The notes beneath the pieces were generated by a model. It had not been told where the DNA came from. It ran no database searches and saw nothing but the letters and a program-made list of their open reading frames with translations. Positions 18,379 through 33,209 of a stretch of DNA of 64,000 nt are shown here, in pieces (the first letter of the stretch is position 1; every line of letters starts with the position of its first letter). Location of the stretch: assembly GCA_025774245.1 (NCBI GenBank), contig JALGWI010000008.1, forward strand, positions 2,525 to 66,524, written 5' to 3'. This stretch comes from a bacterium. Lineage in GTDB: Bacteria; Joyebacterota; Joyebacteria; Joyebacterales; Joyebacteraceae. The position numbers and the translations under genes are program-made.

Positions 18379-21300
18379 ATGGCTGACCGAAGGCCGGACG
18401 ATAAGCCCGAACGCGAGATGCTCGAGGCGTTCAAGAAGGCGATGGAGTCGCGGAGTGCGCGCGATGCGGCGCTCACGGCCATCCGCCTCGGAGACGTCTA
18501 CCTCGAGTCGGACAGCTACACCGACGCGCTCGGCTACTACACCCGCGCCGCGGGAACCGAGCTCGGCTCTGAGCTCGCCGACGGTGAGGTGGCCGGTCTC
18601 AATGTTCAGATCGCCAAGTGTCATCTCGGTCTCGGAAACTACGGCAAGGCGCGGGCCTGCTGCGCGAAGCTCGACGATCTCGAGCTCAGCGAGGAAGACA
18701 GCGCGGCCTGGGCGGAGGCGAACGTCGTTCTCGCGCGAATCGAGATCGAGAGCGGCCGGTACGACGAAGCCCTTCGCGCGGCGCAGAAGGCGTACGACAT
18801 ACTCAGGGTAAGCCCCGACAGCCCACTCCTCGCCGAGGCCGGCAAGGCGCTCGGCATCGCCAACGCCGAACTCGGCAACACGCAGGCGGCGCGCGACTAC
18901 TTCACCGACTATCTTGTTTCGCAGAAACGGCTCGGCAACGAGGCCGGGCTCGCCGCGGCGTACAACAACCTCGGCATTCTGGCGAAGCGGACCGGTGACC
19001 TGAACGGCGCGCTCGAGTATCTCGACAGCGCGCTCACGATCGATCGGAAGCTCGGTCGGTCGCTCGCGATCGCCGACCGCCTGACCAACACCGGCATCAC
19101 CCTCTACAGGCTCTCCAGGTGGGCCGAGGCCGAGGAGAAGCTGAACGAGGCGAAGGAGATCTACTCGAGGATCGGCGCGACGAGAGGCATCGCCGCTGCG
19201 CAGACCGCGCTCGGCAACGTCTATCGCGTGCGCCGCGAGTGGGGCCCCGCCCAGGATCTCCTCGAGAGCGCGCTCAGGGTGAGCCGCGACCACGGCTACC
19301 TCCGGACGGAGGCCCTCGCACTCGAGTTCCTCGGCGACCTCCAGATGGATCAGGGCCTGAAGCAGCAGGCGCGCGGAACGCTCGATCAGGCGCTCGGGTG
19401 CGCGTACCGGCTCGCGTCGAACAGCGACGTCGTCGGGGAGGTCCTGAGGCGTCGCGCCGAAGTGCTCTTCGCACTCGGACGGCTCGAGGACGCCGAGCGC
19501 GACTGCTCCGACGGCGTGAAGCTCTGCCGCGAGATCGGCGACAGCCTCGAGGAAGGCGCGTTCCTTCGCGTCCTGGCGAGCATCTGCTACGCCAAGGGCG
19601 AGCGCACCGCCGCAGAGGTCCTCATCGGCCGCACGGAGGACATCCTCCGGAGGGCGGGGGACTCCTTCGAGCTGGCCAAGACCGCGTTCGCCGACGCCGT
19701 CGGCATGCGCGATTCCTCGGCGCCGGGCGAGCTTCCCATCGACCGTATCGAGGCGCGCTTCTCCGCCGCCGAATCGATCTTCACGAGGATCGGCGCCGGC
19801 GACTGGGTCGCCCGGTGCGAGCTCGAGAGAGGGAAGGCGCTCCACCGCGCCGGCCAGCCCGACCGCGCGAGGACGTGGCTCGATCGCGCCAGGCTCAAGA
19901 TGGAAGTGAGCCACGACCGCGAGGGCCTGGCCGAGGTCGACGCCATTCTGAGGGAACTGGACGCGGAGCTCGAAGAGGCCGGCGTCTCCCGTCGGGGGAG
20001 GTACTCGACCATTGCGGAAGGCTACCGCTTTCTCGAGACGACCGAGCCCAAGGCGGAGGACCTGCACGAGTTCGCCATAGAGATCGCGAACGCGATCCCC
20101 GCGGACCGGCTCGTGCTCTTCTCGGTCACGGAGGAAAACGGCCCGGTCGTCGCGACCTCGGTCGATCACACGGGACGGGGAGTGGCCGAGGTCACCAGGT
20201 TCGTCCGGACCACCATCGGGAACCGCGGACACACGAGGCCGCTCATCGTCAGCGACGGGCGCTCGGCCGACGCATACTTCGCGCCGGGCGTGGGCGCCGT
20301 GGCGCTCATCCCGGGCGAGGTCGGGAACGATCGCGGGCGGACGTACCTTCTCTACACCGACCGCGCCAAGAGCGACCGGTCGACGCCGTTCACGCAGAGC
20401 GACATCGAGTTCATCGCCGCGGCCGCCCGCATGCTCGGGCTGGCGTACACGCGGGCCGGCGAATCGCACGCCTGGGAGGCGGACGGCGAGCTGGCGCAGC
20501 AGCTCAGTGAGTCGTCCGACGGGCGCGGGCTGATCACTCGGGATCCCGGCATGCTGCGGCTCCTGGCCAGCGTCGAGCGTCTGAAGGACAGCCACGTCCC
20601 GATCGTCATCCGCGGTGAGTCGGGAGTGGGCAAGGAGCTCATCGCTCGGGCGATCCACGAGGGTGGGCGCAGCAAGACGGGCCGTTTCGTCGCCTTGAAC
20701 GCCGGCGCCATTCCACCCAACCTGCAGGAGAGCGAGCTCTTCGGGCACGTCAAGGGCGCGTTCACCGACGCCGACCGCGACCGCGAGGGACTCGTTCAGG
20801 CCGCTGCCGCCGGCACGCTCTTCCTCGACGAGATCGGCGAGATGAGCTCGCAGCTCCAGGTGAAGCTCCTCAGGTTCCTGCAGAACGGGGAGTACCGACG
20901 TGTCGGCGAGAGCGTGACGAGGACGAGCGACGCCAGGGTCGTCTCGGCGAGCAACAAGGACCTCGCGGAGGAGGTCAAGGCCGGACGCTTCCGGCGCGAC
21001 CTCTTCTACAGGCTCTGCGCCGTCGTCATCCTGGTGCCGCCCCTGAGGGACAGGCCCGACGACGTCCCGCTCCTCATGGAGCACTTCCGGGAGTTCTACT
21101 CGAAGCGCGAGACCAAGCACATCCCCGGGTTCAGCCGCGAGGTGCGGGAGATCTTCCAGCGGTACGACTGGCGCGGGAATAACGTCCGCGAGCTCGAGAA
21201 CGAGGTCCGTCGGGGCGTGGCCCTGGCTGCGGACGGGGAGGTGATCGGGATCGACAAGATCAGCCCCGAGCTCCGCAGCCGCTACGAGGTCAGCCTCGGC

Positions 21301-21471
21301 GACGACGAGCCGCACCGCCGCTCTCTCAAAGACGAGGTTGGGGCGCTCGAGAAGAGCCGGATCCTGGAGGCGCTCTCGAGGACCGGGTGGAACAAGCAGG
21401 CGGCGGCCGACGTCCTCGGCCTGTCGCGCACAGGCCTCCACGCGAAGATGAAGAAGTACGGGCTCGGATAG
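18379..21471 (+). CDS. Sigma-54-dependent transcriptional activator with a large N-terminal TPR-repeat domain
   Basis: Multiple TPR-like repeats in aa 1-500. AAA+ sigma-54 interaction domain (GESGVGKELIARAIH, ESELFGHVKGAFTDA). C-terminal Fis-type HTH (AAADVLGLSRTGLHAKMKKYGL). Confidence 0.85.
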   Translation: MADRRPDDKPEREMLEAFKKAMESRSARDAALTAIRLGDVYLESDSYTDALGYYTRAAGTELGSELADGEVAGLNVQIAKCHLGLGNYGKARACCAKLDDLELSEEDSAAWAEANVVLARIEIESGRYDEALRAAQKAYDILRVSPDSPLLAEAGKALGIANAELGNTQAARDYFTDYLVSQKRLGNEAGLAAAYNNLGILAKRTGDLNGALEYLDSALTIDRKLGRSLAIADRLTNTGITLYRLSRWAEAEEKLNEAKEIYSRIGATRGIAAAQTALGNVYRVRREWGPAQDLLESALRVSRDHGYLRTEALALEFLGDLQMDQGLKQQARGTLDQALGCAYRLASNSDVVGEVLRRRAEVLFALGRLEDAERDCSDGVKLCREIGDSLEEGAFLRVLASICYAKGERTAAEVLIGRTEDILRRAGDSFELAKTAFADAVGMRDSSAPGELPIDRIEARFSAAESIFTRIGAGDWVARCELERGKALHRAGQPDRARTWLDRARLKMEVSHDREGLAEVDAILRELDAELEEAGVSRRGRYSTIAEGYRFLETTEPKAEDLHEFAIEIANAIPADRLVLFSVTEENGPVVATSVDHTGRGVAEVTRFVRTTIGNRGHTRPLIVSDGRSADAYFAPGVGAVALIPGEVGNDRGRTYLLYTDRAKSDRSTPFTQSDIEFIAAAARMLGLAYTRAGESHAWEADGELAQQLSESSDGRGLITRDPGMLRLLASVERLKDSHVPIVIRGESGVGKELIARAIHEGGRSKTGRFVALNAGAIPPNLQESELFGHVKGAFTDADRDREGLVQAAAAGTLFLDEIGEMSSQLQVKLLRFLQNGEYRRVGESVTRTSDARVVSASNKDLAEEVKAGRFRRDLFYRLCAVVILVPPLRDRPDDVPLLMEHFREFYSKRETKHIPGFSREVREIFQRYDWRGNNVRELENEVRRGVALAADGEVIGIDKISPELRSRYEVSLGDDEPHRRSLKDEVGALEKSRILEALSRTGWNKQAAADVLGLSRTGLHAKMKKYGLG

Positions 21472-21963
21472 AGGGCCCCGGGCCGGCTCTATCGGCCCCA
21501 CAGGAGTGTGCTCCACGATCTCCCCCGGGCGCGCCTGCGCCGGGGGTTTCGATTGTCCGGGAGCGGCTTCCTCTGACGGCGGACCCCGCGCCCCACCGCG
21601 TGTCCCCATGTGCCCCCCGCGTGTCCCCGCCCCCCCCCGCCGGATCCCTCCCCGCGGTCCACGTTCTCCGCAGCCTCCTCCAGGGAGGATCCGCGGCCGG
21701 AAGGCCCGCTTTGTCAGCACTTCCAGCGCGTCGAAACCTCGACGACGCGTCAAAATCTCGACGCTCTCGTAACTTCCCATTCTTCAAGCGGTTAAGGCGA
21801 TACCCCCCCGAGACACCGTACGGACCGTCGAAAACGTGCCATGAGGCTGAATCATCAACCATTTGAGCTCGGCGAGCGCGGCCGTAAACTACAGATGGGC
21901 CACATGTTACATGGAGGCTGTCAGAACATGGCTGAGCGGTCATTCAGCCGTTTCTGGCATGGT

Positions 21964-22185
21964 CTATGCGGTAGTAGGGTATCGGTTGGATTGAAAATCG
22001 AATATGGGAGGAAGAGGCGGCCAGGGTGTTAATAATGCAGGGGGGGCGAGTCCGGTCGCTCTTTGGTTCGCCTCTTTCTTCCTGACTCTCGGCTCCCCGG
22101 AAGATTCGGGGGGATGAAAATAGAGGGTTGTTATGCCGAGCACGGTGAGAGTGAGAATGAAGGTAATGGTCGTGATCCTGCTCAT
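21964..22185 (-). other. Small ORF (73 aa, N-terminal transmembrane helix) with atypical low-GC codon usage inside a low-GC patch. Coding status uncertain.
   Basis: MSRITTITFILTLTVLGITTLYF... AGGTGA lies 9 nt upstream. Codons are ATT/ACT/ATA/TTT-rich, unlike the surrounding GC3-rich genes. Confidence 0.2.
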
Positions 22186-22359
22186 CGGTATCGCATCACC
22201 TGTGCTCGGCTGAGATTACGACAGCTCGCGAAAGCACCCGCAGCTGTAATCGATATAGACAGAGCGGCAGAGCAACGGTCAGCGTCACAGCAAGGAGCAC
22301 ACACTAACAGCACCACCAGCGCGGTTCTTCTCCGCGGGCTCCGTTCCGAGCAGCAACTC

Positions 22360-22376
22360 TGGTCAGCATTTTGCTT
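22360..22376 (+). promoter_or_regulatory. Candidate sigma-54 (-24/-12) promoter upstream of the radical SAM gene
   Basis: TGGTCAGCATTTTGCT: GG and GC at the consensus 12-nt spacing, with a TTGCT -12 element (consensus TGGCACG-N4-TTGCW). A weaker second match TGGCATGGTCTATGCG lies at 21955-21970. Confidence 0.3.
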
Positions 22377-22568
22377 CTCACCTTTCGAGGACGGAGCTGG
22401 CCCACACGGCCGGCAGGAAAGCAGATGACTCTCCCGCAACTGCCCTGCCGGCCGAACCTCGTTCTGGAACAGCATCCCCTTTCATTCGCACCGTCCCGCA
22501 CACCCGAGTCGCAGCGACAGCGCGTCGCGCAGGCCACGCGCTGAGCTCGATCCCCGTCGTTCGCGCTG

Positions 22569-22619
22569 CCCCTGAGATCTGTCCCCGAGGTCCATCCCCG
22601 AGATCCACCCCCGAGAACC
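22569..22619 (+). repeat. Four tandem ~12-13-bp direct repeats CCCC(T)GAG(A/G)(T/A)(C) immediately upstream of the radical SAM maturase start
   Basis: CCCCTGAGATCT / GTCCCCGAGGTCC / ATCCCCGAGATCC / ACCCCCGAGAACC, read directly from the sequence. A partial fifth copy GATCCCCGTCG sits ~25 nt upstream. Confidence 0.55.
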
Positions 22620-22620
22620 A

Positions 22621-25113
22621 TTGGAGAGCAGACCCGCCGTGACGGACCATCGCGTCGAGCTCAGACGTATCGCCGATGGGTTCGCGGCCGCACTCGCTGA
22701 CGTGCGCGGGGCGCCGGGAACCGCAGGAAGCGACAGGGGGCTTCGGCCCGACAACCTGTCTCTCATGATGCCGTTCTATCTCATCGAGGCGGAGCCGTTC
22801 GACGGAGACGTCGACGCCGCGCGCGTGATGGCGCTCGGCAACGCCTTCGGCGCCACCCACTTCCTTCTCCAGGACAGAGAACTCGACGGCGACGAACGGC
22901 CGAGCCCGGGGGGCTGCCACCTGTCGGATCGGTGCCTCGTCCTCTTCGCGCGCCAGTACGGGCGGCTCTTCTCGGGCGGGAGGTTCTGGAGCTTCCTCGA
23001 TCGCTACCTCGGCGAGTACTTCGCGAGCCTCTCGTGGGAGCGCGAGGTGCTGGGGACCCGCGCGGGGGCGGCGGCCGTTTCCGAGGACGAGTTGCCGTCG
23101 ACCCTCACCAGACTCGGGCACAAGATCTCTCCTCTGAAGGCGTGTGCGTGCGCGGTGTCGATGCTCGCGGGGCGTGAGGATCGCCTGCCGCTGATGGAAC
23201 GGGTGATCGAGAGGTTCCACACGGCGTACCAGCTCGCTGACGATCTGGAGGACCTGGCGGACGATCTCGAGGCGAATCGGTGGTCGGTCGTGAGCTGGAT
23301 CCTGGCGCGCTCGGCCGGGCTCGACGAGCCGCCCGCCGGCCGCGCGGTCGATCGACTCCTCTCCGGCGGGCTCGCTGCCGGGGCGCTGCCCGCGATCATC
23401 GATACTATAGACGAGAACTACGCTTCCGCGATCGAGGACGCCGAGAGGCTCGGTGCGCCCTCGCTTCGCTCGCACCTCGAGCGGTGTCGCCGGCGGACGG
23501 CGGCCATCCACCACTGGATGTCGCGGCGGCTCTCGATCGTCCTGAGATCGATGGAGGGGGCCGGCGGGACGGAGGGACCGCGCGCGGAGAACACCGGCTC
23601 GCTCCGGGCGGACGCGCCCGCCCGTCTCCTCCGCCGGGTGCACGCGTTCGAGGTACGGGGCCAGGCGTACGTTCTCGATATCGACTCGGGCCTCTTCTTC
23701 GAGGCGGACCGGCTGGCGTTCGACGTGATCGAATGGCTCAGGCGCGGCGCGGGTCAGGCCGAACTCGACGTGCTGCGGATGAACTCGGGGCAGGAGCCGG
23801 TCGGCGAGGCGATCCGCGAGGTCTGGGGCCTGGTCGATCCGGGCGCGCCCACGCTCCCGGCGGGCGACGAATCCGGCGGGCTCCCGCTCTGGGACGACGT
23901 GCCCGGCGACGTGCTGCCGCCCGGGATCGCCGCGCTGGCGCTCAACCTCACCGACGGGTGCAACCTCCGGTGCGACTACTGCTATCTCGGCGGGAACGCG
24001 GAGGCGAGCCCGCAGGCGACACCGGCCGCGCCCCCGGGCACGGCTCCCGCCGCGAACGGCGGCGTGGCGCCGGTGCTCATGTCCGAGGAGACGGCGCTCC
24101 GCGCCGTCGATCTCCTCATCGACGAATCGCTCGGCGAGTCGCGTCTCTCGATCGTCTTCTTCGGCGGCGAGCCGCTTCTGAACCCGTCGCTCATCGAGAG
24201 CGTCGTCGGCCACGCCAGGAACCGCGTGCGTGCGGACGGCCGCGCCGTGACCTTCCACATGACCACGAACGGGACGCTCCTGACACCGCGGATGTCGGAA
24301 CGCCTGCACTCGCTCGGCGTGGGCATCCTCGTGAGCATCGACGGCGCCGCGTGCGACCACGACGCGCACCGCGTCTTCCCCGGCGGCGGAGGTTCGTACT
24401 CGACGATCGTCGCGAACCTCCTGGGGCTGCCGGAGGGGATGCGGGTCGGAGCGCGGGCGACCGTCACGGAGGAATCGCGCCCGCTCAGCGTGATCGTGGA
24501 GCACCTGAGGGGGCTCGGGTTCTCCGTGGTGCACCTCGCGCCGGTGAGCGGGCCGCCGATGTCGGCTGAGTTCTCCTCGCGACTCTGTGACGAGTTCGAG
24601 GAGCTCGCGCGCCGGGAACTCGAGGCGGTGCGCGACGGGCGGCCGCCGTCGGTGGGGAATCTCGTCGAGCCGGTTCTGGCGCTGCGGACCGGTGCGCGGC
24701 GGCCCGCCCCGTGCGGCGCCGGAGCGCGCTACGTCGCCGCGGGAGCGGACGGCACACTGTCGTTCTGCCACCGCTTCGCCGGCGACGCGCGGTTCGTCGT
24801 GGGCGACGTGGGGGGCGGGCTCGATCGCGACGCGGTGAGGCGCCTCCTCGGGCGGCTCCCCGCCGAGGCGGCCGCGTGTCGCGAGTGCTGGGCGCGCCAC
24901 CTCTGCGGCGGACCGTGCCTGTACGACCTCACGTACTCTCCCGAGGACACGGTCGGCAACGACGCGCCTCGCTGCCGGCTGAGGCGCAGGATCTTCGAGC
25001 TGGCGATGTGGATCTACGCTTCGCTGCCGGGAGATGGGCGCGCGAGGCTGGCGGGCATCGCGAGGAGGGACGTGAGGCCCGAGATCGGAGCCGGGAAGGA
25101 GCCAGGGTCGTAA
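22621..25113 (+). CDS. Radical SAM/SPASM peptide-modifying enzyme with an RRE (PqqD-like) domain and an additional ~330-aa N-terminal domain of unknown function
   Basis: CNLRCDYCY (CxxxCxxC) radical SAM motif. C-terminal SPASM Cys cluster (CGAGARY...FCHRF...CRECWARHLCGGPC). RRE-like segment VHAFEVRGQAYVLDIDSGLFFEADRLAFDVIEWL. N-terminal domain has an acidic QLADDLEDLADDLE motif. An alternative GTG start at 22639 has a better RBS (GGAGAG). Confidence 0.85.
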   Translation: MESRPAVTDHRVELRRIADGFAAALADVRGAPGTAGSDRGLRPDNLSLMMPFYLIEAEPFDGDVDAARVMALGNAFGATHFLLQDRELDGDERPSPGGCHLSDRCLVLFARQYGRLFSGGRFWSFLDRYLGEYFASLSWEREVLGTRAGAAAVSEDELPSTLTRLGHKISPLKACACAVSMLAGREDRLPLMERVIERFHTAYQLADDLEDLADDLEANRWSVVSWILARSAGLDEPPAGRAVDRLLSGGLAAGALPAIIDTIDENYASAIEDAERLGAPSLRSHLERCRRRTAAIHHWMSRRLSIVLRSMEGAGGTEGPRAENTGSLRADAPARLLRRVHAFEVRGQAYVLDIDSGLFFEADRLAFDVIEWLRRGAGQAELDVLRMNSGQEPVGEAIREVWGLVDPGAPTLPAGDESGGLPLWDDVPGDVLPPGIAALALNLTDGCNLRCDYCYLGGNAEASPQATPAAPPGTAPAANGGVAPVLMSEETALRAVDLLIDESLGESRLSIVFFGGEPLLNPSLIESVVGHARNRVRADGRAVTFHMTTNGTLLTPRMSERLHSLGVGILVSIDGAACDHDAHRVFPGGGGSYSTIVANLLGLPEGMRVGARATVTEESRPLSVIVEHLRGLGFSVVHLAPVSGPPMSAEFSSRLCDEFEELARRELEAVRDGRPPSVGNLVEPVLALRTGARRPAPCGAGARYVAAGADGTLSFCHRFAGDARFVVGDVGGGLDRDAVRRLLGRLPAEAAACRECWARHLCGGPCLYDLTYSPEDTVGNDAPRCRLRRRIFELAMWIYASLPGDGRARLAGIARRDVRPEIGAGKEPGS

Positions 25114-25157
25114 CGCCGGGTTGGAGGCGAGTGGGAGTGGGAAGGGAGGTGGTGGGA

Positions 25158-25334
25158 GTGAGGTACCTGAGGATCGCGAACGGGCCGGGAGTGGCCCGTG
25201 CGTGGAGTTCGCGGAGCTCGAAGAAAGACGTCTGTCTGATCGACTACGCGAGCTGCGCGGGATCGGACGTCTGCTGGCTGCTCGACATCGAGAGCGACTG
25301 CATGTCGAACGACGGCTGCATCGTCGACACCTAA
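25158..25334 (+). CDS. RiPP precursor peptide 1 (Cys/Asp-rich, ranthipeptide-like)
   Basis: (M)RYLRIANGPGVARAWSSRSSKKDVCLIDYASCAGSDVCWLLDIESDCMSNDGCIVDT. GTG start 8 nt after GAAGGGAGG; alternative GTG starts at 25149 and 25152. Five Cx3-4D units. Lies immediately 3' of the maturase. Confidence 0.6.
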   Translation: MRYLRIANGPGVARAWSSRSSKKDVCLIDYASCAGSDVCWLLDIESDCMSNDGCIVDT

Positions 25335-25384
25335 TGAGGCCGCACGATGTGCGGGACGGGAATCCGGGATCGGGGAAGGGGGTG

Positions 25385-25570
25385 GTGAGGTTGAAGCACC
25401 TGAGACTCGCCAACGGCGCAGAGGGCGCGGCCGGGACGGTACGAATGGCGCCCAGTCCGTTCCTCTGCTACATCTTCATCGACTGGGGAGACTGCAACTC
25501 GATCGACCAGTGCGGGTTCGACTTCGCGGACTGCGTGAGTGGCGGGGACATCTGTCTCATCGACTACTAG
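25385..25570 (+). CDS. RiPP precursor peptide 2 (Cys/Asp-rich, ranthipeptide-like)
   Basis: (M)RLKHLRLANGAEGAAGTVRMAPSPFLCYIFIDWGDCNSIDQCGFDFADCVSGGDICLIDY. GTG after a GGGGAAGGGGG RBS. An alternative ATG at 25334 overlaps the peptide 1 stop. Five Cx3-5D units. Confidence 0.6.
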   Translation: MRLKHLRLANGAEGAAGTVRMAPSPFLCYIFIDWGDCNSIDQCGFDFADCVSGGDICLIDY

Positions 25571-25646
25571 AGCCGGAGGCGGGAGAGGCACCGGGTTCCC
25601 GGGGGCCGCGGTCGCCGGGGACCCGTGGGGAGGGAGAGGAGGCGCC

Positions 25647-25814
25647 GTGAAGCACCTGAGACTCAAGAACGGACCCGTGTCGGGATCTGCCGCACACGCG
25701 GCACGGGAGTGCTGCGTCCCGTACATCGATTGGGGCGGATGCAACGCGGTCGACTACTGCGGGCAGGACGTCCTGGACTGCCTGGGGGGTGATCTCTGTG
25801 ACCTCGACTACTAG
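25647..25814 (+). CDS. RiPP precursor peptide 3 (Cys/Asp-rich, ranthipeptide-like)
   Basis: (M)KHLRLKNGPVSGSAAHAARECCVPYIDWGGCNAVDYCGQDVLDCLGGDLCDLDY. This is the only in-frame start after the peptide 2 stop and it is preceded by GGAGGGAGAGGAGG. Six Cys, each followed by Asp at +3 to +5. Confidence 0.65.
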   Translation: MKHLRLKNGPVSGSAAHAARECCVPYIDWGGCNAVDYCGQDVLDCLGGDLCDLDY

Positions 25815-27195
25815 ATCGGCGCGGTCCGCGGGCGCGGGTGTGGCTCGCGGGGCCGGCGCGCTCGGCCCACCGGTCGTTCTCGCCGTGCTGCTCGGCGCGC
25901 CGGTCGGAGCGGCGGGCGGGCTTGCCTTCGAGCAGCTGTGGGAGGTACCGCTGGGGCTTCCGTCCCGGGGTACCTCGGACGTGCGCCTCGTCGACTTCGA
26001 CGGGGACGGTCGGACGGAGATCCTGATCGCGCGCTGGCGGCGAGGCGAGCCGGGCGACCTCCTGGTCCTCGATGGGGCGACCGGTAGCGAGAGCTGGCGG
26101 GTCGGCCTCGAGGAGCGGCCGTACGTCGAGACGTGCGACGTCGGTGGGGACGGCAGGATCGAGGTGCTCGCCGCCGTCGGCAACGGACTTCTCGTGATCG
26201 ACGGGGCGTCGGGCGAAACGATCACGACCGTGGGGCTTGCGGGCGAAGCCGGCGCGCTCGCGGTCGGGCACCTCGACGGCGACGAGACCGTGGACGTCGT
26301 CTACGCGGCCGGTGACGAGCGATGCGACGTGCTCGTCGCGCTCGCCGGAGCGGGGGAGAAGGAACTCTGGCGGCGGGAGGCGGAGCCGGCGGAAGGGCGC
26401 TTCGACGAGGGCTTCGGGTTCCTCGTCGCGACCGACGTCGACGGTGACGGTCTGGACGAGGTGCTCGTGACGGAGAACATGAACGTCCTTCTCTGTCTCG
26501 CTTCCGGAGGCGACCTCTCCTGGTCGGCGGTCCTCGGCGAGAAGGGGACGCTCGTTCCGGAGGGCGCCGCGAGCTCCGTTCCGGTCGTCGCGGATCTCCT
26601 GGGCGACGGCGTCAACGAGATCGCCGTCGGCTGCTACGCGGGAGCGCTCGTCGTTCTCGACGGAGCGACCGGCGAGGCGCTCTCGCGGTCGGCCCCGTTC
26701 GGGATCGAATCGCACGCCCGGTACACAAAGAGGGGACGGTTCACTCGTCCCCTCCGCGAGCTCCTGGCGAGGACGGGCGAACCGATCCTCGGGCTCCTGG
26801 CGGTCGATCTGGTCGGTGGGCCCGCGCGCGAACTCGCGTTCGGATGCGCCGACGGCATCTTCTACGCCGTCGATCCTCGCACGGGCACGGAACTCTGGCG
26901 CTACGAGGAGGGAGGCAAGGTCACCGAGCCTGCCGTCGCGCTCGACGCCACGGGCGACGGCGTCGCCGATCTCCTCGTCCGGGACCAGGGGGGAGCGTTC
27001 GTGCTCGACGGGACCGGCGAGGGCGAAGTCGATGTCGGGCCGCTCCCCGACGTGCGCGCCGCCTCGAGCGTCGTCGCGGGCGATGTGAACGCGGACGGCG
27101 TTCTCGATCTGGTCGTCGTGAGCGTGAGGGAGAACCGCGTGGCCGCATGGACGACGGGACTCCCGTGTCCGTCGTCGAACGAGAAGTCGCGATGA
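25789..27195 (+). CDS. Secreted FG-GAP/VCBS-repeat (beta-propeller-like) protein
   Basis: Repeated DxDGDG motifs (DFDGDGRTE, DVGGDGRIE, DVDGDGLDE, DVNADGVLD, DATGDGVAD). Hydrophobic N-terminal segment. The start is uncertain because it overlaps the peptide 3 3' end. Confidence 0.65.
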   Translation: MISVTSTTRSARSAGAGVARGAGALGPPVVLAVLLGAPVGAAGGLAFEQLWEVPLGLPSRGTSDVRLVDFDGDGRTEILIARWRRGEPGDLLVLDGATGSESWRVGLEERPYVETCDVGGDGRIEVLAAVGNGLLVIDGASGETITTVGLAGEAGALAVGHLDGDETVDVVYAAGDERCDVLVALAGAGEKELWRREAEPAEGRFDEGFGFLVATDVDGDGLDEVLVTENMNVLLCLASGGDLSWSAVLGEKGTLVPEGAASSVPVVADLLGDGVNEIAVGCYAGALVVLDGATGEALSRSAPFGIESHARYTKRGRFTRPLRELLARTGEPILGLLAVDLVGGPARELAFGCADGIFYAVDPRTGTELWRYEEGGKVTEPAVALDATGDGVADLLVRDQGGAFVLDGTGEGEVDVGPLPDVRAASSVVAGDVNADGVLDLVVVSVRENRVAAWTTGLPCPSSNEKSR

Positions 27196-27887
27196 GCGCC
27201 GGGGCGACACCTGCCGCGTCGCTCGTCTCTCTCCTGAACGTCCGGAAGTCCTACGGCAAGCGGGGGCGCTCGGTCGAAGCGCTCGCTCCGCTCACGCTCT
27301 CGGTCGGTCGGGGAGAGTCCGTCGCGCTGGTCGGACCGAACGGTGTCGGGAAGACGACGGCGCTCAAGATCGTCGCGACGCTCGTCGAGCCGACGTCCGG
27401 CACGGCGATCGTGTGCGGACACGACGTCGTCGGCGATTCCGGACGGGCGCGCCGCGCCGTCGGCGTGTCCCTCGGGTCTCGCCGCTCGTTCTACTGGAGA
27501 CTGACCACGCGGCACAACCTGTCGTTCTTCGCGAGGCTCAGGGGCGTCCGCGGCGCGAGGATCCCCGCGGAGATCGACCAGGTCGCCCGTGAGATGGGAC
27601 TCGGTCCGAACCTGGACCTTCCGGTCAGACGCCTCTCGCGGGGAGCGCTCGCGAGGCTCTCCGTCGGGCGGGCGATGCTCGGGGATCCCACCGTGCTCCT
27701 TCTCGACGAACCCCTGGCGTCGGTCGATCGCGCCGGGCGAGAGCTCGTCTGGCGCGCGATCGAGAGACGCCTCGCCGCCGGCGCCTGTCTGCTCCTGGCG
27801 ACCCACGAACCGGAGGTGGCGTCCCGGTGCGGCTCGGCCGTGTCGCTCGCCGGAGCTCCCCGCGTGCCGGGGAGGGCGGCGCGATGA
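27192..27887 (+). CDS. ABC transporter ATP-binding protein
   Basis: Walker A GPNGVGKTT, signature LSRGALARL, Walker B LLLDEP. ATGA start-stop overlap with the upstream gene. Confidence 0.8.
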   Translation: MSAGATPAASLVSLLNVRKSYGKRGRSVEALAPLTLSVGRGESVALVGPNGVGKTTALKIVATLVEPTSGTAIVCGHDVVGDSGRARRAVGVSLGSRRSFYWRLTTRHNLSFFARLRGVRGARIPAEIDQVAREMGLGPNLDLPVRRLSRGALARLSVGRAMLGDPTVLLLDEPLASVDRAGRELVWRAIERRLAAGACLLLATHEPEVASRCGSAVSLAGAPRVPGRAAR

Positions 27888-28735
27888 GAGACGACGTTCA
27901 CTGGCTCCGACGCGCGGTCCGCGCGGCGCGGATCCTGTGCGGCGTGGCGTGGGCGTTCGCGTCGCGGAGCGTCGCCACGTACGCGAGCTACCGGGCCAAG
28001 CTCTCGCTCGGGCTGGCGTCGCTCGTCCTGTCGCTCGTGACGTTCTCGTTCGTCGGCCGCGTCGTCTCGAGCGCCGGCTCCGGGTTCGTCGACCGCTACG
28101 GGATGAGCTACTCGTCGTTTGTCATCGTCGGCGTGCTCGTCCACGGCGCGGCCTCCGCCGGGCTCTCGTCGTTCCGCTCGTCGGTGCGCCGCGAGCAGCT
28201 CCAGGGGACGCTCGAGCTCCTCGCCGTCACGCCGGTTCCCGTGCCGCTCGTCCTGTTCCTCTCCGGGCTCGGCGAGATCGCCATCGCCGCGGCGGGCGGC
28301 GCGGCCCTTCTCGCGCTCGCGGCTGTGTTCCTCGGCTTCGAGATCACGCTCTCGCTCCCGCTCGTCGCGGCCGTCGTCCTCTACGGTGTCGCCGCGTGCG
28401 GGATCGGTCTCGCCTCCGCGGGGATCATCCTCGTCTCGAAGGAGGGCGAGCCGCTCTCCTGGGGGTTCGGGGCGATCGCCGGGCTCGTGGGCGGCGTCTA
28501 CTTCCCGGTCGACCTCCTGCCTTCGTGGCTGCGGCGCGTCTCGGTCGCCCTTCCCACCACGCACGCGCTTCGCCTCGCCCGCGCGGGCCTCTCGGGGGCC
28601 GGCGCCGACGCGTCGACGTCCTCGTCGCTCGTCCTCCTCGGGGCCACCGCCGGTCTCGCGCTGGTCGCCGGGTTTCTCGTCCTCCACTGGGGATACCGCT
28701 CCGCGCGGCGCGCGGGGACGCTCGGGGAGTACTAG
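27884..28735 (+). CDS. ABC-2 type transporter permease
   Basis: Six predicted transmembrane helices. Translationally coupled (ATGA) to the ATPase. Confidence 0.75.
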   Translation: MRDDVHWLRRAVRAARILCGVAWAFASRSVATYASYRAKLSLGLASLVLSLVTFSFVGRVVSSAGSGFVDRYGMSYSSFVIVGVLVHGAASAGLSSFRSSVRREQLQGTLELLAVTPVPVPLVLFLSGLGEIAIAAAGGAALLALAAVFLGFEITLSLPLVAAVVLYGVAACGIGLASAGIILVSKEGEPLSWGFGAIAGLVGGVYFPVDLLPSWLRRVSVALPTTHALRLARAGLSGAGADASTSSSLVLLGATAGLALVAGFLVLHWGYRSARRAGTLGEY

Positions 28736-28897
28736 ACGTCCCGCGATCGCGCCGCCCGGCGCACCCGCCCGCTTTCCGCTTGCTCTCGTCTCACGCCGTA
28801 GTGTCTAATGAGAGGATCGCCGCTCGCGCCGGTCGTTCCTCGCGGTGGACGCGTCCCGCGCCGCCGCGATCGCCGCACCCGACTCCGGAGTTCCGCG

Positions 28898-30706
28898 ATG
28901 ACCTCGAAAAGGCCCAGCTATCTCCCGATCGCGTCGATCGTCGTGGGCATCGTCATTCTCGCGATCGCCGTCGGCGTCGCCTCGTTCCGCGACATCGACC
29001 GGGGACGCCAGCAGGTCGCTGACGTGCTCGACCGCCAGGCGAGGTTCGCGATCGGGTCGCTCGGGGCGGCCGTGCGGGCCAGCTTCATGGCGCCGAACTG
29101 GGATCGACCGCACCTCGATCTGATCCTGCAGGGCGCGGCGGGCGACGAGGAGATCAGCCACGTGGCGATCCTCGACGCCGACGGGACGATCGTCGCGCAC
29201 AGCGATCCCGAGCGGGTCGGAACCGTCTGGGAGGGGAGCGGGCTTCTCGAGGCCGTGGCGGACCGGCGGTTCTTCGCAAGTCGCGTCATTCAGACCGACG
29301 GCCTGACGGTCCACGAGTACGTGGCGCCGTTCCCTCCGTTCCCGCGCCGTCTCACCGCGGCCATGATCCGGCGGGCGCCGCACAGGATCCTCGAGCTCGA
29401 GGCCATGTACGGCCGCATCTCGGTGCTCCTGAACAGGCGGGTCGCACCCGGCGAGAACCTCAATCTCTTCATGGTGATCGGCCTCGACTCGACGCAGCTC
29501 GACGCCGGGTTCCTCGCGTCGAGGAACCACACGTTCATGATGTCCGGCATCCTCCTTCTGATCGGCGGCATCGCGATCTACTTCCTCTTCCTGATGGCTC
29601 ACTACCGGTCGGTCAGGACGGCCCTCGCGAACATGCGTTCGTACACGACCAACGTGATCGAGAGCATGGGGAGCGGACTCGTCTCGTTCGACGCCGACGC
29701 GCGTCTCGTCACCGTGAACTCGAGGGCTCGCTCCCTTCTCAGCATTCCCTCGGGCGATGTCGCGGGTACGCCGATCGACGACGTCCTCGCCTTCGAATCG
29801 GACGCCGACAGGGCCGGCGTCTACGGCGTCATGAGCGGCGCCGCGGACACGTTCGAGTCCGAGGCCAGGCTCGTCGCGGGGAGCGACACCATCCCGGTGG
29901 CCCTCGCCGCCTCGTCGCTCAGGGACGAGGCGGGGGAGCGGTCGGGGTCGGTCGTGCTGCTCCAGGACATGCGCGAGATCGAATCGCTCAAGGAGGAGGT
30001 CGCGAGGGAACGCCACCTGGCGTCGCTGGGCAGGCTCGCGGCGGGCGTCGCGCACGAAGTCAGAAACCCCCTGAGCTCGCTCAAGGGTTTCGCCCAGTTC
30101 CTCCGGACCAAGTTCACGCCAGGGTCCCGGGAGGAGCGATACGCCGACATCATGATCGAGGAGGTCGAGCGGCTCGACCGCGTCGTTCAGGAACTCCTCG
30201 ACTTCGCGAAGCCGATCACGCCCGAGAAGAGGGCGGCCGATCTGAACGCGATCGTCGAGGAAGCGCTCTCGCTCGTCGTCGACGACGCCCTCTACAGAGA
30301 GGTCGAGATCGCGCGGGAGCTGGGCGACGGTCTCCCGCACGTGTTCGTCGACCCCGGGCAGGTTAAGCAGGCGCTTCTCAACATCCTCCTGAACGGACTC
30401 GAGTCGATGGGCGACGACGGCGGGACGCTCACCGTGGCGACGTCGGCCGATGGCGGCTCGGGTGGCAGCGTCGCGATCGCCGTCTCCGACACGGGAGCCG
30501 GCATGACGGACGAGGAGATCGCGAAGCTCTACGAGCCGTTCTACACGACGAAGCCGTCGGGCACGGGTCTCGGCCTCACGATCGTGTCGAGGATCATCGA
30601 GCAGAACGACGGTCACGTCCGCGTCGCGAGCGCGAAGGGCGAGGGAACGACGTTCACGATCGAGCTGCCGGCGGCGTCGGGACGCGGCGCGCGGCCGGCC
30701 GCCTGA
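28898..30706 (+). CDS. Sensor histidine kinase (NtrB/AtoS-like) with a periplasmic sensing domain, PAS, HisKA and HATPase
   Basis: Two N-terminal transmembrane helices flank a ~190-aa loop. H-box HEVRNPLSSLKGF. ATP-binding motifs (DTGAGMTDEE, GTGLGL). Confidence 0.8.
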   Translation: MTSKRPSYLPIASIVVGIVILAIAVGVASFRDIDRGRQQVADVLDRQARFAIGSLGAAVRASFMAPNWDRPHLDLILQGAAGDEEISHVAILDADGTIVAHSDPERVGTVWEGSGLLEAVADRRFFASRVIQTDGLTVHEYVAPFPPFPRRLTAAMIRRAPHRILELEAMYGRISVLLNRRVAPGENLNLFMVIGLDSTQLDAGFLASRNHTFMMSGILLLIGGIAIYFLFLMAHYRSVRTALANMRSYTTNVIESMGSGLVSFDADARLVTVNSRARSLLSIPSGDVAGTPIDDVLAFESDADRAGVYGVMSGAADTFESEARLVAGSDTIPVALAASSLRDEAGERSGSVVLLQDMREIESLKEEVARERHLASLGRLAAGVAHEVRNPLSSLKGFAQFLRTKFTPGSREERYADIMIEEVERLDRVVQELLDFAKPITPEKRAADLNAIVEEALSLVVDDALYREVEIARELGDGLPHVFVDPGQVKQALLNILLNGLESMGDDGGTLTVATSADGGSGGSVAIAVSDTGAGMTDEEIAKLYEPFYTTKPSGTGLGLTIVSRIIEQNDGHVRVASAKGEGTTFTIELPAASGRGARPAA

Positions 30707-30723
30707 GCCGCGAGGGGAATCGG

Positions 30724-32067
30724 ATGGACGCCAGGAGCATGAGGATCCTCGTCGTCGACGACCAGTCGAGTGTGCGGCAGCTTCTCAAGGCCGTGCTCGA
30801 GGAGGACGGACACGAGATCGACACGGCGCCCGACGGGGAGAAGGCGCTCGAGGCCGTCGCCGCGGGCTACCACGACCTCGTCGTGATGGACATCCGGATG
30901 CCGGGGATCGACGGCGTCGAGGCGCTCGAGCGGATGCGCGCGTCGAGCCCTCAGACGGCCGTCGTCATGATGACCGCGTACGCCTCGGTCGAGACCGCGG
31001 TGCGGGCCATGAAGCTCGGCGCCTTCGACTACGTCACGAAGCCGATCGACATCGACGAGGTCCGGGCCGTCGTCGCGCGGTTCATCGAGTCGTCCGGCCC
31101 TCCCGACGCCGTCGAGGAGGCGCCGCCCAAGCCGTCGAGGGAGATCATCGGGGCGAGCGAGACGTTCCGGGAGATGCTCTCGGTCGTCCACAGGGTCGCC
31201 GAGAGCGACGCGAGCGTTCTCCTTCTCGGCGAGAGCGGGACCGGCAAGGAGGTCATCGCGAAGGAGATCCACCGCGCCGGCCCCCGCGCCCGGAAGCCGT
31301 TCGTCGCCATCAACTGCTCTGCGATCCCGGAGGGTCTCCTCGAGAGCGAGCTCTTCGGGCACGAGAAGGGCGCGTTCACCGGTGCGGTCCGTCTGAAGAA
31401 GGGACGCTTCGAGCTGGCCAACGGCGGCACGGTTTTCCTCGACGAGATCGGCGACATGTCGCGGGCGCTCCAGGCGAAGCTCCTGAGGTTCCTCCAGGAC
31501 CACACGCTGTCGAGGGTCGGAGGAGGGCAGGACATCACGGTTGACGTCCGCGTGGTCGCGGCGACGAACCGCGATCTCGAGCGCGCGGTGGCGGACGGCG
31601 ACTTCCGCCAGGACCTCTACTTCCGGCTGAACGTCGTCACGATCACGATCCCGCCGCTCCGCGATCGCCAGGAAGACGTGCCGCTCCTGGTGGAGCACTT
31701 CCTGAAGCTCCACGCGCCGGAACGGGGCAAACCGAAGAAGATGTCGCCGCGCGCGATGCGCATCGCCATGAACTACGACTGGCCCGGGAACGTCCGCGAG
31801 CTCGAGAACGCCGTCCAGAGGGCGGTCGTCCTCTCGCGCGGAGAGACGATCTTCCCCGAGCACCTGCCCGCGAAGGTGCAGGCGACGGGCGGCGATCCCG
31901 GGGCTGAGACGCTCGAGGTGGGGAAGACCATCCGGGAGGTCGAGCGGGACATCATCGAGAAGACACTCAAGCAGACCGACGGGAACCGCACGAAGGCATC
32001 CGAGATCCTCGGCATCTCGCGGCGGACCCTCCAGAACAAGATCAAGGAGTACAAGATCGACCTCTGA
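30724..32067 (+). CDS. Sigma-54-dependent response regulator (NtrC/AtoC family)
   Basis: REC domain (VVDDQSSVRQLL...D). AAA+ domain (GESGTGKEVIAKEIH, ESELFGHEKGAFTGA). C-terminal Fis HTH. Confidence 0.9.
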   Translation: MDARSMRILVVDDQSSVRQLLKAVLEEDGHEIDTAPDGEKALEAVAAGYHDLVVMDIRMPGIDGVEALERMRASSPQTAVVMMTAYASVETAVRAMKLGAFDYVTKPIDIDEVRAVVARFIESSGPPDAVEEAPPKPSREIIGASETFREMLSVVHRVAESDASVLLLGESGTGKEVIAKEIHRAGPRARKPFVAINCSAIPEGLLESELFGHEKGAFTGAVRLKKGRFELANGGTVFLDEIGDMSRALQAKLLRFLQDHTLSRVGGGQDITVDVRVVAATNRDLERAVADGDFRQDLYFRLNVVTITIPPLRDRQEDVPLLVEHFLKLHAPERGKPKKMSPRAMRIAMNYDWPGNVRELENAVQRAVVLSRGETIFPEHLPAKVQATGGDPGAETLEVGKTIREVERDIIEKTLKQTDGNRTKASEILGISRRTLQNKIKEYKIDL

Positions 32068-32408
32068 GCGGCGGCTCCGGGACCGCGCTCCGCGGCGACG
32101 GGGAGCGGCCTTCGGAGGTGCGAAGATTCTGCGCAGTGGGTCCTCCCATCTGGGAAGGACCTGCGCAGCCGGACGCGTCGATCGCTCCCGGAAGCGCGTC
32201 GCTCGCGATCCTGCGCGCGCGTAACCCGCTGAATCCTCGGCGGTTGCACGATCATCAGAAAAGGGTGCGGCGGTTGTCCGGAGCTGGCATGCCGGTTGCA
32301 CAAAACGGGGAGTGTGGGAACGCTCCCGGCGGACCGAAAGAGGACGAACGGAGAAACGGTCACGGGGAGCACAAGACGGGAGAGTCGAAGGAAGGAAAGG
32401 GGAGAACC

Positions 32409-33209
32409 ATGAGACGCAGAAAAGCTCTGATCGCGGTCATCATAGCGCTGGCAGTTGCCACCGCGATTGCGGTTCCCGCGGTCGCGCAGAAGCGAGTAGA
32501 GGTCAGGCGCATGGAGTGCATGGACGGCCCCGGGATGGGCATGGGGCGCCCCGGCATGGGTAAGGGGCATCCCGGCATGGGCACGGGGCACGGCCCCGCG
32601 CTGACCTCCGAGCAGCAGGAGCAGGCCGACGCCATCCGGGAGAAGTACGATGACCAGCGCGTGGAGCTCGTCAACAGGCTGAAGGCGATGGCGATCGAGG
32701 CCGACGATGCCTTCGACGGTGACGCGCCGGACTTCGCCGCGCTCGAGAAGCAGATCGACGAGGCGGCAAAGGTCAGAGCCGACATGGCGAAGCTCAAGCT
32801 CAGGATGCACAAGGAGATCCGCGGTATTCTCACCGAGGACCAGCGCACCATCTTCGATCACGGCCTGTCCTCGAAGTTTGGCCGCGGTCTCATGATGGGC
32901 GGCCAGGGACACGGCGGCATGCGGGGCGACATGGGCCGCGGTTGCCGCGGCATGAGAGGCGGCGGGCGCGCCAGCTGCGGCATGATGGGCGGCATGGGTC
33001 CCGGAAGCTGCGGCATGATGGGCGGCTTCGGCATGGGCGGTGAGCCCATGATCTGGGAAGAGAAGACCGAGGACGGTACGCGTATCCGCAAGATGATCTT
33101 CATCCCCGAGGGGGCGGAGCTCCCCGAGGGGCACGAGATGCACGAGATGCACGAGATGTACTTCGAGACGGATCACGACGGCGACTCGGAGGGGCACAGC
33201 TCCCTCTGA
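32409..33209 (+). CDS. Periplasmic Spy/CpxP-family (LTxxQ motif) protein with Met/Gly/His-rich low-complexity segments
   Basis: Signal peptide. LTSEQQEQADAIREKY and LTEDQRTIFDHG motifs. GMGMGRPGMGKGHPGMGTGHG, MMGGQGHGGMRGDMG...GMMGGMGPGSCGMMGGFGMGG and HEMHEMHEM segments. Confidence 0.7.
   Translation: MRRRKALIAVIIALAVATAIAVPAVAQKRVEVRRMECMDGPGMGMGRPGMGKGHPGMGTGHGPALTSEQQEQADAIREKYDDQRVELVNRLKAMAIEADDAFDGDAPDFAALEKQIDEAAKVRADMAKLKLRMHKEIRGILTEDQRTIFDHGLSSKFGRGLMMGGQGHGGMRGDMGRGCRGMRGGGRASCGMMGGMGPGSCGMMGGFGMGGEPMIWEEKTEDGTRIRKMIFIPEGAELPEGHEMHEMHEMYFETDHDGDSEGHSSL

Follow-up and report, generated by a model that had tools for sequence, protein, structure and literature searches.

Introduction

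In Salmonella and E. coli, ZraR drives the sigma-54 promoters of zraP and zraSR, and ZraP acts as a zinc-dependent periplasmic chaperone in the envelope stress response (PMC4987338). Among enzymes acting on ribosomal peptides, ComQ and PalQ have been described as tryptophan prenyltransferases with an isoprene-synthase fold (PMC10853753). One survey of response regulators in biosynthetic gene clusters found that only 2% of them had sigma-54 domains (PMC10663231). Here, we analyzed a bacterial locus that shares traits with these systems, namely a gene cluster for peptides that are made by ribosomes and modified after translation (RiPPs) on contig JALGWI010000008.1 (assembly GCA_025774245.1). The analyzed stretch of 64,000 nt (positions 2,525 to 66,524 of the contig) is referred to as the window. 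The cluster encodes a radical SAM/SPASM maturase, precursor peptides, and a transporter, and it is flanked by the genes of two bacterial enhancer-binding proteins (EBPs), i.e. EBP1 on one side and, behind a histidine kinase gene, an NtrC-type response regulator on the other.

Control of the maturase-peptide-transporter operon by sigma-54 is well supported by phylogenetic footprinting of the candidate promoters and enhancers. With a probability of about 0.6, the locus consists of three adjacent transcription units kept together in one uncultured lineage, in which EBP1 would serve the peptide genes and the NtrC-type regulator a promoter of its own (P3). Our literature search yielded no paper joining ranthipeptides to sigma-54, or Eisenbacteria (the group of the named relatives) to radical SAM enzymes.

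Results

Sigma-54-type promoters in the window

Both strands of the entire window (GC content approximately 67%) were scanned for -24/-12 sites with a position weight matrix, and the level of matches expected by chance was taken from 100 simulated sequences with the same dinucleotide model as the window. The three top matches, at 32285 (P3, 16.2 bits), 22360 (P2, 14.4 bits), and 21955 (P1, 14.3 bits), were all intergenic and located on the + strand. Simulated sequences contained a mean of 0.23 matches with at least 14 bits, and none of the 100 had three. In P1, P2, and P3, the dinucleotides GG and GC are exactly 10 bp apart and stand in a TGGCAC-N5-TTGCW-like context. P1 and P2 lie in front of the maturase gene, where a preliminary description of this region had already pointed to candidate -24/-12 elements.

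Conservation was assessed in 8–13 divergent related loci, the count varying by element. The footprint was derived from an alignment of 7 loci, which was extended to 11–13 loci. Synteny was obtained from exact-protein look-ups, which provided seven further long contexts (L161, L162, L163, L166, L167, L168, and L169). The positions of P1 to P3 are held in 7–13 loci, and the maturases of the long contexts are, where measured, only 44–57% identical to that of the window. The GG and GC dinucleotides and their exact spacing are invariant in 11–13 loci, with variation at neighboring bases. For P1, the position is conserved in 11 RiPP loci and in two loci that contain EBP1 without peptide genes, and the bases TGGCA and TGC are invariant. 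In 11 loci, the maturase gene has a sigma-54-type site 80–260 nt upstream of it, and P3 ranks first or second among the matrix matches of each of the seven loci reaching this position. In L082, L166, and L167, which form one subgroup, P2 has decayed at its ancestral position; nearer to the maturase gene, these loci have a new site of the sigma-54 type, which comes with a new, perfect dyad. This turnover with replacement argues that selection keeps a sigma-54 promoter in front of the operon.

Each of the three sites is accompanied by a separate type of dyad, located 108–210 bp upstream of its own promoter (upstream activating sequences UAS1, UAS2, and UAS3). Dyad matches elsewhere were stray ones, situated in coding regions or far off (50052 and 54583 in the window). 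Only two EBP genes were detected in the 64 kb, both in this region and each encoding a Walker A motif and a GAFT-type loop. Scanning for the sigma-70 consensus, with a search not tuned to this phylum, revealed no site upstream of the maturase gene. In a consensus scan for terminators, no signal above chance was obtained; in particular, there was none inside the operon, none after the permease gene, and no T-rich one after a small open reading frame (ORF) located between P1 and P2.

EBP1 and its candidate target sites

EBP1 combines a TPR/MalT-like region with its AAA+ domain, and the Pfam matches comprised Sigma54_activat (204 bits) and HTH_8 (51 bits). The loop is a GAFTDA variant that is found in 75 of the 87 family members. 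Homologues of EBP1 fall into two groups. Those with 65–97% identity adjoin the maturase cluster in every locus examined. The second group is approximately 54% identical; from this group, L164 (a 1.1-Mb contig) and L165 (an NCBI Eisenbacteria assembly) were examined, and neither contains peptide genes within 10 kb. Both keep the small gene that precedes EBP1, as well as UAS1 and a P1-like site 340–370 nt past the EBP1 stop codon. The P1-like site is followed by approximately 0.6 kb without a called gene (L164, 13091–14065; L165, 13031–14030), in which the small ORF, a conserved 25-nt element, and a hairpin, all described below, were sought and not recognized.

UAS1 aligns in 12 of 12 loci, including the two without peptide genes. 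Within the scanned RiPP loci that cover the region, UAS1 is the only place with the tandem GTC-N8-GAC pair, apart from an additional match in the window at 50052. UAS1 and P1 are thus tied to EBP1, because the three are co-inherited in two loci that lack peptide genes. UAS1 is a probable EBP1 enhancer, and we infer that EBP1 activates P1.

EBP1 is much better conserved than the maturase: the proteins encoded on one shared contig of 17,447 nt are 84% and 54% identical, respectively, to those of the window. EBP1 is always preceded by a gene of 113–131 aa without a Pfam match (17932–18327 in the window). This small gene is present in L161 to L168, including L164 and L165, the copies being equated by their position rather than by direct sequence comparison.

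Conserved low-GC region upstream of the maturase gene

Between EBP1 and the maturase gene extends a gap of approximately 1.15 kb, with a GC content of 55–60% over positions 21600–22400. Judging from the alignment, this low-GC patch is a conserved regulatory region: it can be followed block by block through UAS1, P1, the 25-nt element, the small ORF, UAS2, P2, and the hairpin (Table 1).

The predicted leader downstream of P1 contains the 25-nt block GGGGGGCGAGTCCGGTCGCTCTTTG, which is invariant in the 7 loci of the original alignment and also in the 11 loci of the extended one. RNAalifold placed this block inside a long purine/pyrimidine stem with 7 pairs that display compensatory changes. An Rfam search of 21400–22800 with E-values up to 5 returned no family, only noise (microRNA models and Pseudomonas small RNA models far below their thresholds). 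The leader may represent a cis-regulatory RNA or a small RNA.

The small ORF was found, together with its GAGG site, in 11 loci. It codes for 24–28 aa, its indels are multiples of three, and 12 of its 17 variable columns fall on codon position 3. Neither Pfam nor NCBIfam yielded a match. For the 26-aa product, a role as a small regulator in the membrane or as an immunity peptide is conceivable.

UAS2 is present in the window and in seven of the eight relatives covering the region, and the loci searched for it had one match each. The most parsimonious candidate activator of P2 would likewise be EBP1. The arms (10 nt) of the hairpin between P2 and the maturase gene are invariant in 7 loci, and the predicted fold has a free energy of -31 kcal/mol (z = -5.3). 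In one subgroup of loci, the hairpin is situated upstream of P2 rather than downstream.

Table 1. Genes and candidate regulatory elements in the analyzed region (window coordinates).
Feature	Position	Strand	Description
EBP1	18379..21471	+	1030 aa; TPR/MalT-like sensor region, sigma-54 AAA+, AAA lid, HTH_8; no receiver domain
UAS1	21729..21763	.	Tandem dyads CGTCGAAACCTCGACG and CGTCAAAATCTCGACG (CGTC-N8-GACG), ~210 bp upstream of P1
P1	21955..21970	+	Sigma-54-type promoter TGGCATGGTCTATGCG; predicted start near 21981
P1 leader, structured	21981..22132	+	Invariant 25-nt GGGGGGCGAGTCCGGTCGCTCTTTG at 22041-22065
Small ORF, 26 aa	22133..22213	+	MPSTVRVRMKVMVVILLIGIASPVLG; basic N-terminus, hydrophobic tail; GAGG ribosome-binding site
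UAS2	22244..22262	.	Dyad CTGTAATCGATATAGACAG (relatives: CTGTCA-N7-TGACAG), ~108 bp upstream of P2
P2	22360..22375	+	Sigma-54-type promoter TGGTCAGCATTTTGCT; predicted start near 22386
Hairpin/palindrome	22408..22453	+	GGCCGGCAGG-N26-CCTGCCGGCC, within the operon's 5' untranslated region
Maturase	22621..25113	+	Radical SAM/SPASM, ~830 aa; ORF from TTG 22621
Precursor type A	25158..25334	+	Leader MRYLRIANG; core with 5 Cys, each with Asp at +3 to +4
Precursor type B	25385..25570	+	Core CYIFIDWGDC...CLIDY
Precursor type C	25647..25814	+	Found only in the window and L161
FG-GAP/PQQ-like beta-propeller	25840..27195	+	FG-GAP_3 81.9 bits; signal-peptide-like N-terminus; predicted secreted
ABC ATPase, DrrA-like	27192..27887	+	Start overlaps propeller stop (ATGA)
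ABC-2 permease	27884..28735	+	Start overlaps ATPase stop (ATGA)
Sigma-70-like promoter of the kinase-regulator pair	28780..28809	+	TTGCTC, 18-nt spacer, TCTAAT
Histidine kinase	28898..30706	+	Transmembrane segment, ~180-aa sCache_3_2-like extracytoplasmic domain, transmembrane segment, PAS, HisKA, HATPase
NtrC-type response regulator	30724..32067	+	Canonical GAFTGA loop
UAS3	32119..32167	.	TGCGAAGATTCTGCGCA and TGGGAAGGACCTGCGCA; ~140 bp upstream of P3
P3	32285..32300	+	Sigma-54-type promoter TGGCATGCCGGTTGCA; best match of the window; 109 nt before start codon
ZraP/CpxP/Spy-family periplasmic protein	32409..33209	+	LTXXQ/Metal_resist; Gly/Met-rich and HEMHEMHEM segments

Maturase, precursor peptides, and transporter

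Seven genes follow P2, encoding (i) the maturase, (ii–iv) three precursors, (v) a beta-propeller protein, (vi) an ABC ATPase, and (vii) an ABC-2 permease. All described genes between 18379 and 33209 are located on the + strand, and the functional neighborhood reaches 33209, beyond the end at 32067 that the preliminary description had assumed. The gene content given there was recovered in full. The maturase-peptide operon does continue into the FG-GAP protein, the ATPase, and the permease, so that it carries its own coupled ABC/ABC-2 transporter; the ATGA stop-start overlaps suggesting translational coupling are real at both junctions (27192 and 27884); and the domains of the histidine kinase and the NtrC-type regulator behind the operon were confirmed. 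Two statements had to be modified. The activator of 1030 aa with TPR and sigma-54 regions, described as directly upstream, is indeed encoded there, separated by the gap of 1.15 kb from the maturase gene, and the noted peptide gene exists as one of three. Because of the two ATGA overlaps and the lack of internal terminator-like sites, the genes would fit a single operon transcript.

The database gene call of the maturase has 824 aa and a GTG start at 22639. The N-terminal ~300 aa are predicted to adopt a prenyl-synthase fold and are followed by a peptide-recognition region and a radical SAM/SPASM part of the QhpD/PapB/SCIFF type. Residues C447, C451, and C454 (CxxxCxxC) are invariant, and likewise the C-terminal Cys clusters. 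The C-terminal ~490 aa align over the full length of the SCIFF-maturase structure 5wgg (E = 9e-44), which we take to be CteB. The best NCBIfam models were QhpD (241 versus a cut-off of 453), PapB (230 versus 340), and SCIFF (170 versus 425), i.e. all matched below the cut-off. The family with this two-domain layout comprises 47 clusters, all of which are metagenomic, and its named members come from Candidatus Eisenbacteria. When genome and metagenome contig collections were scanned with the maturase alignment, mostly single-domain QhpD-type enzymes (from Pseudomonas and others) were retrieved, which are approximately 30% identical and align with residues 338–802 only; the true relatives obtained from these collections were L001 and L081–L085 only.

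For the N-terminal domain (22621–23640), no Pfam match was obtained, and two Asp-rich motifs are invariant. Its structural model has a trans-prenyl-diphosphate-synthase fold (predicted local distance difference test score of 89), nearly all of its top 50 matches among PDB structures were prenyl diphosphate synthases or related prenyltransferase domains, and a profile search against PDB sequences agreed with this fold. Relatives of the domain are rare, with only 269 among 1.84 billion representative proteins. They occur either as stand-alone proteins or as fusions, the partner being a radical SAM/SPASM enzyme in some and squalene-cyclase/prenyltransferase toroid domains in others. By analogy with ComQ and PalQ, the domain may prenylate the Trp residue of the core peptides.

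The 18 precursors compared, from 8 loci, have in common the leader M(K/R)HLRLANG and a core with a single Trp and five Cys residues, behind each of which Asp is found at +3 to +5. All 8 loci encode precursors of type A, which end in IxDT, and of type B, which end in CLVDY; each of the three types contains five Cys-x(2-4)-Asp units. No NCBIfam or Pfam match was found for the precursors. As far as can be deduced from the sequence, the Cys/Asp pattern would fit Cys-Asp thioether chemistry.

The beta-propeller gene starts after the third precursor and is conserved in every locus. A comparison of its product with solved structures gave no match to the QhpB beta subunit at E-values up to 1. The best match of the maturase to QhpD and the similar gene order had made an enzyme complex like QHNDH a candidate, which was rejected: the propeller is unlike QhpB, and genes for a haem protein, a protease, and a flavoprotein are absent. 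The ATPase and permease pair is conserved in all loci; it is of the DrrAB/ABC-2 type and contains no peptidase domain. Passage of the cross-linked peptides through the inner membrane is the most likely function of the transporter, export being a plausible role for this ABC-2 pair; a role in immunity would be putative.

Kinase-regulator pair and its candidate target

In the gap between the permease and kinase genes, CTTGC and GTGTCTAAT are invariant in 8 loci, in two of which the gap is only 60 nt long. The pattern across these loci is CTTGCy, a spacer of 17–18 nt, and TCTAAT. This sigma-70-like element became evident by alignment only; the consensus scan had missed it. The likely start of the kinase gene is 28898, not 28808. 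Both the AtoS and the ZraS models of NCBIfam matched the kinase below their cut-offs (ZraS, 290 versus 479, and in the catalytic half only), and JGI names the orthologues HydH. For the regulator, AtoC was the best model, also below cut-off, and ZraR scored 441 versus 760. The identity of kinase homologues falls from at least 49% in Eisenbacteria-type contigs to 35–38%. Each orthologue examined with at least 49% identity directly follows the permease gene (8 of 8 contexts), and none was found elsewhere.

Each of the seven loci reaching that far has UAS3 in the stretch from the regulator gene to P3. This enhancer type, TGCGAAGAAnCTGCGCA, stands beside the regulator gene and occurs upstream of P3 and the ZraP/Spy-like gene only: a search of 8 loci detected none near P1 or P2, and further matches (up to 3 mismatches) were confined to coding regions or to position 54583 of the window. 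The sequence presumably resembles an AtoC binding site, a resemblance that serves as a lead rather than as a test.

The protein encoded behind P3 matched LTXXQ with 25.5 bits (cut-off 24.3) and Metal_resist with 24.2 bits. A ZraP-like gene follows the regulator gene in the window and in five loci; L161 has an unannotated gene of 253 aa at this place, and L169 differs. Long Gly/Met-rich stretches and a C-terminal tail, HEMHEMHEM...HDGDSEGH, characterize the protein, and its composition suggests that it binds metal. Further metal-related genes in the vicinity encode an ArsR-type regulator and CutA1; some relatives additionally have genes for CzcB-like and MacB efflux proteins there.

A kinase-regulator pair with 35% identity, the same kinase architecture, and an NtrC-type regulator was found in a Deltaproteobacterium (L170). 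There, the pair is divergent from a Metal_resist gene, the gene of a heavy-metal P-type ATPase is adjacent, and peptide genes are absent from the vicinity. The Metal_resist gene is faced by a sigma-54 site of 16.9 bits and the kinase gene by one of 16.5 bits. From its composition and by analogy with ZraPSR, the trio of kinase, regulator, and ZraP-like protein is most likely a metal or envelope stress module that drives P3.

A UAS3-like sequence, TGCGAAGAACCTGCTCA, was also noted at 54583–54599 (- strand), approximately 300 bp upstream of the sigma-54-like site TGGCACGCCCCTTGTT at 54903–54918 (+ strand). The latter has an off-consensus -12 element and precedes a gene for a signal-peptide-bearing protein of 303 aa (55311–56222). 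The NtrC-type regulator may thus have another target in this site and gene.

Synteny of the locus

Eight contexts share a common order, i.e. EBP1, a gap of ~1 kb, maturase, two to three peptides, propeller, ATPase, permease, kinase, regulator, and Metal_resist gene. Exceptions are due to gene calls fragmented by frameshifts in a long-read assembly (L169) and to contig ends. One shared flank contains genes for an S49 peptidase, Omp85, RlmN, an ArsR-type regulator, creatininase, and the small gene preceding EBP1; the other one contains genes for a Xan_ur permease, CutA1, an outer-membrane barrel, OsmC, and PmbA/TldD. Both are the same in the window. In the RiPP-bearing loci, the gene order indicates a stable chromosomal neighborhood, not a recent insertion. 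The cluster had previously been taken for an island with a possible insertion boundary at the low-GC patch. This interpretation was abandoned: the patch is the conserved regulatory region, which aligns block by block across loci, and both flanks are syntenic in relatives.

Discussion

In the reading that we favor, EBP1 would act as a one-component sigma-54 activator whose TPR/MalT-like region senses a signal. It would bind the tandem dyads just downstream of its own gene and open P1, from which the structured leader and the gene of the 26-aa hydrophobic peptide would be transcribed. P2, together with read-through from P1, would drive the seven-gene operon. The sigma-70-like promoter would express the Cache/PAS kinase and the NtrC-type regulator, and the phosphorylated regulator would bind UAS3 and activate P3, leading to the synthesis of the Met/His-rich ZraP/Spy-like periplasmic protein. 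Gene content, motif positions, and motif conservation were read directly from the compared loci; the pairing of dyads with proteins, the transcript ends, the signals sensed, and the role of the transporter are deduced from them.

Several points weigh against this reading. The sigma-54 dependence of the promoters is derived from motifs and their conservation, and the matrix was built from the published TGGCACG-N4-TTGCW consensus, i.e. without a curated alignment. No RpoN box is encoded in the 64-kb window. EBP1 has GAFTDA in place of the canonical GAFTGA loop, so that its contact with sigma-54 is putative. Moreover, the EBP1 genes of L164 and L165, the flanks of which are entirely different, may be paralogues rather than orthologues. 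UAS2 has the GTC/GAC core of UAS1 with another spacing and other flanks, and its assignment to EBP1 is tentative. Read-through from P1 and P2 could also raise the levels of the kinase and the regulator. Finally, a functional link between kinase and peptide, as a stress response to the exported peptide or as sensing of it, is possible, since the pair follows the cluster in 8 of 8 contexts with no terminator after the permease gene.

According to a rival explanation, EBP1 controls P1 only, as part of a unit of leader and 26-aa peptide that is older than the peptide cluster, and P2 is driven by an EBP encoded elsewhere or by the neighboring regulator. The presence of EBP1, UAS1, and P1 in two loci without peptide genes is consistent with this explanation, as are the hairpin-forming sequence after the small ORF, the differences in spacing and flanks between the two dyads, and the turnover of P2 and UAS2 in one subgroup independently of P1. 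However, the small ORF has no T-rich terminator behind it, which makes read-through into the operon likely; in every locus examined, homologues of EBP1 from the 65–97% group adjoin the maturase; the GTC/GAC core is common to both dyads; and just two EBP genes are present within 64 kb. We consider a restriction of EBP1 to P1 rather unlikely. That the -24/-12 matches are no promoters at all, with the operon being transcribed from an unrecognized sigma-70-type promoter and the conserved blocks representing RNA structures or repressor sites, is highly improbable. The consensus scan was not tuned to this phylum, and some conserved blocks, such as the 25-nt element and the hairpin, are clearly something other than promoters, which would agree with this explanation. 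Against it stand the invariance of GG/GC and of their exact spacing in 11–13 loci, three matches of at least 14 bits versus 0.23 expected, a dyad at a typical enhancer distance upstream of each site, the location of the sites between two EBP genes, and the negative sigma-70 scan upstream of the maturase gene.

The preliminary description had envisaged a layered control by sigma-54, with two EBPs acting on the RiPP operon and a possibly autoinduced production. Control of the operon by sigma-54 is retained from this proposal, and the action of two EBPs is not. In its explicit form, the kinase would sense the exported modified peptide and the regulator would feed back on P2, in a manner resembling ComQXPA. 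The kinase-regulator pair follows the transporter genes in 8 of 8 contexts with no kinase orthologue found elsewhere, the order of maturase, precursors, kinase, and regulator is like that of comQXPA, the maturase contains a ComQ-like isoprenoid-synthase-fold domain (PMC10853753), and each core peptide contains a Trp residue; in addition, UAS2 has no assigned binder, and no terminator separates the permease from the kinase gene. These arguments are countered by the absence of UAS3, the dyad beside the regulator gene, from P1 and P2, by the pair's own conserved sigma-70-like promoter, and by the occurrence of the trio of kinase, regulator, and Metal_resist gene in a distant relative without peptide genes (L170). 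As the whole neighborhood is syntenic, adjacency alone is a weak argument, and a Cache/PAS kinase and an NtrC-type regulator differ in type from ComP and ComA. No evidence of autoinduction was found, and we judge autoinduction through the second EBP to be unlikely. An even more elaborate scenario would be a new cell–cell signaling circuit, in which a thioether-cross-linked and possibly Trp-prenylated peptide is made by the ComQ-like/radical SAM fusion, exported by the ABC-2 transporter, handled by the periplasmic propeller, and sensed by the Cache kinase; the regulator would have its outputs at P3 and perhaps P2, the TPR activator would act as a gate via P1, and the circuit would also include the 26-aa membrane peptide and the structured leader. 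This scenario appears unlikely as well.

Under the favored reading of three adjacent units, the analysis provides a testable regulatory map for an uncharacterized family of modified-peptide clusters in Candidatus Eisenbacteria, consisting of promoters, enhancers, predicted starts, and candidate activators. The bacterium of the window probably belongs to this phylum, which to our knowledge has no cultured members. In heterologous expression, the operon would probably stay silent unless sigma-54 and the TPR-type activator are supplied or its promoters are replaced. That a second sigma-54 regulator is encoded next to the cluster is no reason to assume that it controls the cluster; it most likely belongs to the ZraPSR-like stress module, which has a target of its own. 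Further parts of interest are the 26-aa small ORF, the structured leader, and the prenyl-synthase-fold domain fused to the maturase.

Comparison with known systems

The maturase and precursors resemble the ranthipeptide/SCIFF systems (CteB, PapB) and QhpD in the alignment of the SPASM maturase and in the Cys-x(2-4)-Asp repeats of the precursors. They differ from SCIFF and QhpD in NCBIfam scores below cut-off, in the fused prenyl-synthase-fold domain, and in precursors that match no model. The order of maturase, small peptide, beta-propeller, and ABC transporter presumably resembles that of the qhp operon. Unlike qhp, the locus contains no gene for a haem subunit, protease, or flavoprotein, and its ABC-2 transporter is split and DrrAB-like. 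With DrrAB and LanFEG-like export or immunity systems, it shares a separate ATPase and ABC-2 permease that are translationally coupled and placed at the end of a biosynthetic operon. In contrast to these systems, there is only one permease gene, no C39 peptidase domain, and no recognizable immunity protein.

ComQXPA (ComQ/PalQ) is similar with regard to the isoprenoid-synthase-fold domain, the precursors containing Trp, and the order of enzyme, precursor, kinase, and regulator. Unlike in ComQXPA, the prenyl domain forms part of a radical SAM fusion enzyme and has retained both Asp-rich motifs, kinase and regulator come from unrelated families, and the propeller and ABC transporter genes stand between the precursors and the kinase. 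No evidence was obtained that connects the regulator with the peptide promoters.

As in ZraPSR (HydH/HydG), a membrane kinase with an extracytoplasmic sensor is combined with an NtrC-type regulator and an adjacent LTXXQ/Metal_resist gene behind a dyad and a sigma-54 promoter. Whereas zraP is divergent from zraSR, the zraP-like gene of the window is co-directional and downstream. Further differences to ZraPSR are the sigma-70-like promoter of the kinase-regulator pair, with no sigma-54 promoter visible there, a Cache-like sensor with an added PAS domain, and a longer ZraP-like protein with Met/His-rich tails. With scores below the cut-offs, the window proteins fall outside the ZraS and ZraR equivalogs, and AtoS and AtoC score higher, yet also below cut-off. 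In L170, the divergent zraP-zraSR layout with two sigma-54 sites is found as in ZraPSR.

EBP1 is comparable to PspF, NorR, and PrpR, in that an EBP without a receiver domain is encoded beside its presumed target, with dyads 100–210 bp upstream of GG-N10-GC. Unlike in these systems, the sensor of EBP1 is a TPR/MalT-like array of approximately 700 aa, the loop reads GAFTDA, the sigma-54 promoters are arranged in tandem with different dyads and a conserved small ORF between them, and the target is a peptide-modification operon. The locus is a standard EBP/sigma-54 arrangement on an uncharacterized peptide cluster, made unusual by its tandem promoters, by the small ORF and structured leader between them, and by a TPR-type EBP with a GAFTDA loop.

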